Assembly (NCBI RefSeq): GCF_013315695.1
Contig: NZ_CP054353.1
Length of the DNA: 64,000 bases
Source: Escherichia coli
Lineage (GTDB): Bacteria > Pseudomonadota > Gammaproteobacteria > Enterobacterales > Enterobacteriaceae
Reading direction: 5' to 3' (one strand)
A program made the translations under genes and the position numbers. The notes beneath the pieces were generated by a model. The model saw only the letters and a list, made by a program, of their open reading frames with translations, made no database searches and had not been told where the DNA came from. Shown in pieces: positions 24,694 to 25,821 of this stretch (position 1 is its first letter; each line of letters opens with the position of its first letter).

Positions 24694-25821
24694 ATGATTA
24701 AGAAAATAAGCGTAAGAAAAGATCAGCTGGCATTACTCTCCAGAAATGGCGATTACTACAAAGTGCTGCATGCAGGCGAGCATCTTTTACCCTGGTTAAA
24801 TACGCCAGAAGTCTTGCTGATTACGCTCGATGGCAGCGAAGTTCCCGACGTGCTGGCGGATTATTTGCGCCGCTTTCAGCCTGATTGGGTGGAAAGATAT
24901 TGCGTGGTGGCCGACTTGTCGGAGACTGAAGCCGGGGCGTTGTATATGGACGGTATTTTGCTGGAGATCCTGCCGCCATCAACGCGTCGTTTGTACTGGC
25001 GTGTAGAGGATGATTTGACGCTGGTGCGGATGAATACGCAGCAAGTCCAGGTTCAAACGGAGGTGATGAATGCGGTATTGCAGCCACGGCGCAAAGGGAC
25101 TGTTAAAGGCCGCGATGCGATACTGACGGTGCAGGTTCCGGCCTGGCACGTAGGTGTACTGAAAATCGATGGTGAAACGCAGGCGCTGTTACCGCCGGGG
25201 CTGACTGCGTACTGGAAAATTAACCATCTGGTTGAAGCTGAAGTGGTTGACACCCGCTTGCAGGTACTGGAAGTCAGTGGGCAAGAAATCTTAACGAAAG
25301 ATAAGGTCAATCTGCGGATTAATCTCGCCGCTAACTAGCGCTACAGCGACGTGTTATTGGCATTTAGTCAGTTAACGAAGCCGATTGATCATTTGTATCG
25401 GGAATTGCAATTTGCACTGCGTGAAGCGGTAGGTACGCGTACGCTGGATGAGTTGCTGGAAGATAAACAAGTCATTGATGACGTTGTCAGCGAACAGGTG
25501 AAATCGCGTATGTTGCCATTTGGTATGGAGATTGCTTCATTAGGGGTGAAAGATATCGTCCTGCCTGGCGATATGAAAAATATCCTTGCGCAGCTGGTTG
25601 AGGCGGAGAAATCCGCGCAGGCCAATGTGATTCGTCGACGTGAAGAAACGGCAGCGACGCGTTCGTTACTCAATACCGCTAAAGTCATGGAAAACAACCC
25701 GGTGGCGTTACGCTTAAAAGAACTGGAAACGCTGGAGAGAGTGGCTGAGCGGATCGATAACATCTCTGTATTTGGTGGTCTGGATCAGGTTCTGCACGGG
25801 TTAGTGAATATCAAAGGATGA
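24694..25821 (+). pseudogene. SPFH/band-7 (stomatin-like) domain protein, interrupted by in-frame TAG at 25336-25338
   Basis: ORFs 24694-25338 and 25351-25821 are in the same frame separated only by TAG; downstream part carries SPFH motifs (GTRTLDELL, coiled-coil tail); AAGGA RBS. Confidence 0.75.

Follow-up and report, generated by a model that had tools for sequence, protein, structure and literature searches.

Two neighboring open reading frames on the plus strand of a 64,000-nucleotide stretch of Escherichia coli DNA (the window), 24694-25338 and 25351-25821, raise the question of whether they are two genes or one gene cut by the amber codon TAG at 25336-25338 and, if they are one gene, whether that stop is real and still ends translation. 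The original prediction described an in-frame TAG inside one SPFH domain, and it left three explanations standing: a nonsense mutation, a sequencing error, or a host that carries an amber suppressor. Comparison with orthologues, with other genomes of the same clone and with the operon in which the gene lies makes us highly confident that the TAG is an ordinary Trp215-to-amber mutation, and that the locus is a slipin pseudogene in a decaying accessory locus and not a recoded gene.

The two frames belong together. In the list of open reading frames they share one frame and encode 214 and 156 amino acids, and a single-frame translation of 24694-25821 gives 375 codons in which codon 215 is the sole internal stop, with TGA as the terminal one. 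The codons around the stop are CTC GCC GCT AAC TAG CGC TAC AGC GAC GTG, and the peptide at the junction reads VNLRINLAAN, stop, RYSDVLLAFSQL and, further on, GTRTLDELL. Residues 147-212 of the N-terminal fragment match positions 2-65 of the Pfam Band_7 profile (PF01145) with 35.4 bits, and residues 15-99 of the C-terminal fragment match positions 91-175 with 44.9 bits. Each fragment passes the PF01145 cut-off separately as well, and in the restored (intact) slipin the match runs unbroken over positions 2-175 with 93.2 bits, against a cut-off of 23.6. Since the two frames match collinear parts of one profile, their juxtaposition is not due to chance, and the description of a TAG within one SPFH domain was exact: the frame is shared, and the profile continues across the stop. 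We annotate 24694-25821 (plus strand) as a slipin/SPFH (Band_7) pseudogene of 375 codons with its internal stop at codon 215, and 25351-25821 (plus strand, GTG start) as a C-terminal remnant of 156 amino acids that holds the rest of the SPFH domain and the C-terminal region. This status is already recorded in the public RefSeq/PGAP annotation of related genomes, where in strains AF3, MS 21-1 and AF14 the slipin coding sequence is labeled "slipin family protein", pseudo, "internal stop". The AF3 gene (AC9VVF_RS19705) is identical to that of the window and has the same TAG; V9Z47_RS24775 (MS 21-1) and AC9VS1_RS06215 (AF14) have the same TAG and are one SNP from the window gene.

Orthologues identify the ancestral codon. 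The original prediction had favored a nonsense mutation, with TGG to TAG as the simplest change, and had proposed an alignment of orthologues. In such an alignment the intact E. coli orthologues in NZ_CP066806.1 (20 nucleotide differences) and NZ_CP028764.1 (27 differences), both 98% identical to the window gene at the nucleotide level, have TGG at codon 215, so that one G to A transition at position 25337 accounts for the stop. Relative to the NZ_CP066806.1 protein, amino-acid changes are limited to T136A and the stop itself. We considered a Dcm site as the origin of the transition and rejected it, as the context is AACTGGCGC and not CCWGG. The wider family is intact at this position. The 120 closest proteins in a collection of 5.8 billion have 375-376 amino acids, and a search of 1.84 billion cluster representatives retrieves 546 clusters at E<1e-30, many of which have in common the full architecture of about 375 amino acids, including a family-specific N-terminal domain of about 145 amino acids. 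In an alignment of 73 full-length, diverse representatives with 31-68% identity to the query, none terminates at position 215, and 67 of the 73 have an aromatic residue there (Tyr in 39, Phe in 18, Trp in 10). The observation that would have told most strongly against one interrupted gene, namely orthologues that stop here and are followed by a separate downstream gene, is not seen among the 120 closest proteins, and all 73 representatives continue past the position.

These alignments also bear on whether the two pieces could work as they are. In that case the 214-residue piece and a re-initiated 156-residue piece would act as two polypeptides, the products of genuine genes, and the split would be tolerated; the GTG at 25351 is in frame and lies four codons (12 nt) past the stop, and the allele persists in hundreds of isolates with neither frame damaged further. 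However, a two-gene organization occurs in no orthologue, the SPFH domain itself is interrupted, at a conserved aromatic position, no Shine-Dalgarno sequence is evident ahead of the GTG, and clonal descent accounts for the persistence. We give a tolerated split very little credence and retain the reading of a single gene broken by a nonsense mutation.

The likely consequence of the break can be seen from the structure of the family. Position 215 aligns with the Phe in VVYFRV of the Pyrococcus stomatin (3bk6) and with the Tyr in VVYYRV of human stomatin (9oh9), and the alignment runs on to the C-terminus. The slipin resembles the stomatins (PH1511, 3bk6; 9oh9) in the SPFH domain and the C-terminal region, with E=3.6e-22 to the Pyrococcus protein over residues 181-356. 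It differs from stomatin and HflK/C in having the additional family-specific N-terminal domain of about 145 amino acids and in lacking the hydrophobic membrane segment: we find no membrane anchor in the protein, its highest 19-residue Kyte-Doolittle mean being 1.13. Scores against the NCBIfam HflK and HflC models are far under their cut-offs. By these sequence features the protein is predicted to belong to a soluble SPFH sub-family, with an N-terminal domain of its own that is kept across the 73-sequence alignment. In solved SPFH assemblies, oligomerization is mediated by the later half of the domain together with the C-terminal region. We propose that the G to A change at 25337, which replaces the TGG of Trp215 by an amber codon, would stop translation of this soluble SPFH/slipin protein once residue 214 has been added, partway through the SPFH domain, so that both of these parts are lost. 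Without them, the truncated product is most likely non-functional. Polarity of the TAG on the downstream RlaP gene is possible, as is trace read-through at the TAG.

We next ask whether the stop is real. The exact 57-mer that contains the TAG is found in five complete genomes, out of 987 genomes matched by 57-mer: MS 21-1 (USA), AF3, AF14 and one other of the AF3 accession series, and MSB1_4I. AF3 and AF14 come from UK blood culture, so that the USA, the UK and one further project are represented among the five genomes. The window region is 100% identical over 1421 bp to AF3 (NZ_OZ547117.1) and MSB1_4I (NZ_LR898874.1), and over 50 kb the window differs from AF3 by 12 SNPs, which makes it another isolate of the same clone. 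In a wider collection (NCBI, ENA, Logan, JGI) the exact 214-residue fragment occurs on 822 contigs and the exact 156-residue fragment on 796. The TAG allele has become fixed in a single E. coli clone that has been widely sequenced. A sequencing or assembly error, in which the true codon would be TGG and the gene intact, had been one of the options of the original prediction. A single-base difference is of a kind that errors can make, and nothing more specific speaks for it. The same TAG in five independently sequenced complete genomes from separate projects and countries, the exact truncated protein on hundreds of contigs, the window as a further assembly close to AF3, and a site with no homopolymer or repeat all argue against it, and we regard an error as so improbable that it can be set aside. 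The slipin gene itself is much more widespread than the TAG. Of 5426 complete genomes, 1623 have a match over 80% or more of its length, which is about 30% for complete E. coli. Other C-terminal-only slipin frames also occur in E. coli assemblies, one of 91 amino acids on 406 contigs and one of 221 amino acids on 102, which suggests independent disruptions in other lineages and a recurrent loss of slipin.

A real stop could still be read through. Full-length slipin might be made by means of an amber suppressor tRNA, by read-through or by recoding, and for this it counts that the reading frame around the TAG is intact and that a C after UAG does not give the strongest context for termination. 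Several results point the other way. ARAGORN calls no tRNA gene in the 64-kb window, the region to which that result applies. For a suppressor elsewhere in the genome we searched for one class, supE44: the exact 75-mer of the supE44-type glnV is present in 155 genomes, and all 60 of those listed are K-12 laboratory derivatives, with genomes of 4.5-4.8 Mb compared to 5.3-5.5 Mb for the TAG genomes. The tRNA-like leader of the operon, described below, has no CUA anticodon loop, and neither does any of the 46 homologues detectable by ARAGORN. We also considered the leader RNA itself as the amber suppressor and rejected it, given that it has no CUA loop and that the RNA is the same in strains with TGG. 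The TAG is confined to one clone and all other sequences examined have a sense codon; conserved in no orthologue, it argues against programmed recoding. In addition, the later destruction of RlaP by an IS4 element suggests an operon under no selection. Synthesis of the full-length protein from the TAG allele is in our judgment very improbable, and we continue with the TAG as an inactivating mutation.

The DNA downstream of the slipin gene gives the order of events. The RlaP gene starts 5 nt past the slipin stop, in the same direction, and its intact orthologue matches the Pfam RlaP family (PF10127) with E=5.7e-95. In the window it is in two pieces. The 5' fragment of this nucleotidyltransferase gene (25827-25945, plus strand) has codons 1-39, equal to nucleotides 1-119 of the intact MS 21-1 gene, and PGAP labels it "incomplete"; the 3' fragment (27372-28056, plus strand) is exactly nucleotides 108-792 of the MS 21-1 gene, labeled "missing N-terminus". 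Between them lies a 1426-bp IS4 at 25946-27371 on the minus strand, with its transposase at 25959-27305 (minus), as located from the list of open reading frames, the annotation and a junction analysis. The element is flanked by a clean 12-bp target duplication, CAGCCGCGGCTG, at 25934-25945 and 27372-27383. A copy of IS1, placed by its terminal repeat and by annotation, follows at 28116-28883 (plus strand), 60 bp past the RlaP stop, and homology to K-12 restarts at lysC, 37 bp past IS1. Relative to K-12, where yjbD directly precedes lysC, the island occupies 24296-28920 of the window. In MS 21-1, RlaP and lysC are separated by a defective Mu-like prophage remnant of some 17 kb (genes for a Mor activator, lysis, sheath, tube, tape measure, baseplate and tail fibre), with slipin and RlaP just past its tail-fibre end; this remnant is absent from the window.

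Since MS 21-1 and AF14 combine the TAG with an intact RlaP and with the prophage remnant, the TAG is older than the changes due to IS4 and IS1. IS4 split RlaP after the TAG had arisen, in the sub-lineage that includes the window, and the prophage remnant adjoining RlaP was also lost later, beside the IS1 copy. All of the pseudogene features annotated in the first 50 kb, three in number, lie within the slipin/RlaP island. The two slipin frames are otherwise undamaged, with 0-1 SNP among the TAG genomes; this is expected for a recent mutation and is no proof that selection is absent. The overall pattern is that of an accessory module decaying without selection. Separately, the window has a second accessory insertion nearby, at 16154-22672, which is a sorbose operon (sorE, PTS IIA-IID, an SDR oxidoreductase and a SorC-type regulator) located between pepE and rluF, an interval in which K-12 has no sorbose operon.

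The DNA upstream of the slipin gene shows what kind of operon has been inactivated. A sigma-54 (-24/-12) promoter-like element, TGGCACGCTTCTCGCA, lies upstream of the operon at 24379-24394 on the plus strand. It was identified as a sequence motif, is the only TGGCAC-N5-TNGCA match in the 64-kb window, and is comparable to the motif TGGCACGACGGTTGCA in the rtcB promoter region of K-12. It is followed, in the expected order, by the T-loop GGTTCGATTCC at 24508-18, which occurs once in the 64-kb window and is part of a structured tRNA-like leader RNA at 24413-24541 (plus strand). For this leader, RNAalifold applied to 11 enterobacterial leaders gives a consensus structure of four helices and 31 pairs, which in the window are helix 1 (24413-18/24486-91), helix 2 (24424-30/24437-42), helix 3 (24444-60/24464-82) and the T-arm (24506-09/24517-20). 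A further hairpin at 24523-41 was read by eye and is outside the tested structure. In the alignment 95.9% of the cells are paired, compared to 40-49% in controls with the partners slid 1-3 columns, and 20 pairs have a compensatory change, compared to 1-5 in those controls. None of 500 shuffles matches the observed values, with the exception of the count of further pair types, which is matched by 36 of 500. By itself the leader sequence folds only marginally better than its shuffles (z = -2.0), so that the structure is shown by the comparative analysis and not by the single-sequence fold.

The enterobacterial leader has a T-arm and three other helices and is not a full cloverleaf, and the tRNA-like element of the window is too degenerate for ARAGORN. 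A permissive scan of 24100-24750 with Rfam 15 finds no family, SAM-III and SpF11 being at chance level and far under their gathering scores, and the Rfam Y-RNA and YrlA models do not match the leader. A consensus scan of 24100-25000 for sigma-70 promoters and terminators returns nothing useful. The promoter and leader RNA have 0 differences relative to MS 21-1 and 2 relative to a strain with the intact allele. Several other features of the upstream region can be noted. A second conserved block (GCCGG, GCAGGCAAAAGGGAATTCCCCTG, CTTCG, in this order) lies in the 5' UTR at 24597-24693, between the tRNA-like element and the slipin start, and is common to Phytobacter, Enterobacter, Pluralibacter and others. 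At 24569-24596, after an A-run, there is a strong hairpin, GGGGATTGCGCAGTCAGCGATCCCC, which on the minus strand would read as an intrinsic terminator; the terminator scan made no call there. Relatives have repeated motifs, TATCC followed by AAAGATAAA and CGATA followed by AGATAAA, near the rtcR start and upstream of the sigma-54 promoters, and these repeats may be RtcR binding sites. The window has a similar sequence, CGATAAATACAGATAAAAA, at 24240-24300, within DNA that K-12 likewise has upstream of yjbD.

The same arrangement recurs in other genomes. At the locus of a 68%-identical homologue the order is a divergent rtcR, a 478-bp spacer, Band-7 and RlaP. We surveyed this locus together with 80 others from a scan of 100,044 species genomes, using tblastn to identify the neighbors. 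Among the 81 loci, a divergent rtcR is found 2.0-2.4 kb upstream in 40, and the genes downstream include RtcB in 44, RlaP in 23 and RtcA in 9. The T-loop GGTTC[GA]ANTCC lies upstream of Band-7 on the same strand at 61 of the 81 loci, in two copies at 33, and on the reverse strand at none. The sigma-54 motif TGGCA[CT]-N5-T[TGC]GC[AT] is found in the same relative place upstream at 33 of 81, many of which have the divergent rtcR. ARAGORN reports same-strand tRNA-like genes at 46 of 81 loci, with incoherent or malformed anticodons of which none is CTA. Conservation of this Band-7/RNA-repair architecture extends across Proteobacteria, where rtcR and rtcB usually accompany it. The window operon has no rtcR beside it, its upstream neighbor being yjbD, and the island has no RtcB; in K-12, rtcR is located elsewhere, at 3.558 Mb. 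On gene order and motifs, the slipin gene is the predicted first cistron of an Rtc-type RNA-repair operon composed of a sigma-54 promoter, a tRNA-like leader, Band-7 and RlaP.

As to other settings for these genes, slipin and RlaP have no PADLOC match at E<=0.01, and we rejected a catalogued defense system as a candidate. A tblastn search of slipin against 50,697 phage records gives no match, though the E. coli module adjoins prophage tail genes, and a scan of IMG/VR yields four loci only, too few for use. On one 94-kb viral contig, IMGVR_UViG_3300007072_000340, at 22-2551, an array of 16 tRNA genes is followed directly by a distant (36%) slipin homologue.

The amber codon itself is a lineage-specific pseudogenizing mutation in an accessory gene, and it means very little. 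Its only uses are as a clonal marker and as a dated step in the decay of the island, in which a nonsense mutation was followed by IS4 and then by the loss of the adjoining DNA beside IS1. The surrounding orphan Band-7-RlaP operon, with its sigma-54 promoter and structured tRNA-like leader, is of more value, and it is present in about 30% of complete E. coli genomes; for the Band-7 and RNA components, the role in RNA repair is a predicted one only. The clone is a natural double knock-out of slipin and RlaP, and it could serve as a comparison strain. A more speculative idea, drawn by analogy and to which we assign a low probability, is that the leader RNA may act as functional partner to the soluble Band-7 protein, in the way that Y RNA does to Ro, in an orphan module that lacks rtcR and rtcB and is possibly driven by RtcR in trans. 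If this were true, the clone would be a natural "RNA-only" mutant, with the promoter and RNA untouched and both protein genes dead.

Two known types of system can be compared with this operon. Burroughs & Aravind 2016, as described in bioRxiv 10.1101/312249 and PMC7824862, predicted Band-7/"b7a-tRNA" RNA-repair systems tied to RtcB and RlaP. According to the 2018 preprint (bioRxiv 10.1101/312249), the b7a-tRNA type of RNA was without experimental validation. The protein PaFlo8 (PA14_60630) in the P. aeruginosa rtc locus is an example of a Band-7 system (PMC13086221), and enzymes of the RlaP type extend damaged RNA 3' ends by one or two nucleotides (bioRxiv 10.64898/2025.12.29.696909). The leader RNA of the window corresponds to the predicted "b7a-tRNA": those systems likewise have a tRNA-like RNA with a canonical T-loop, followed by Band-7 and then by RlaP. 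In the b7a-tRNA relatives, rtcR is divergent, the promoter is of the sigma-54 type and the operon also includes rtcB and/or rtcA. The version in the E. coli island differs: neither rtcR nor rtcB adjoins it, and in related strains it is found beside the tail-fibre end of a Mu-like prophage remnant. This E. coli clone further differs from the b7a-tRNA systems in that both protein genes are inactivated. The second comparison is with the Salmonella operon of Rsr (Ro), the YrlA/YrlB Y RNAs and RtcB, and the likeness of the Band-7/tRNA-like RNA pair to that operon is an analogy taken from bioRxiv 10.1101/312249. The Salmonella operon is also an RNA-repair system of the RtcR/sigma-54 type, with a tRNA-like RNA beside a putative RNA-binding scaffold protein. 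The two differ in the partner of the RNA, which in the operon described here is an SPFH/Band-7 protein and not Ro60.
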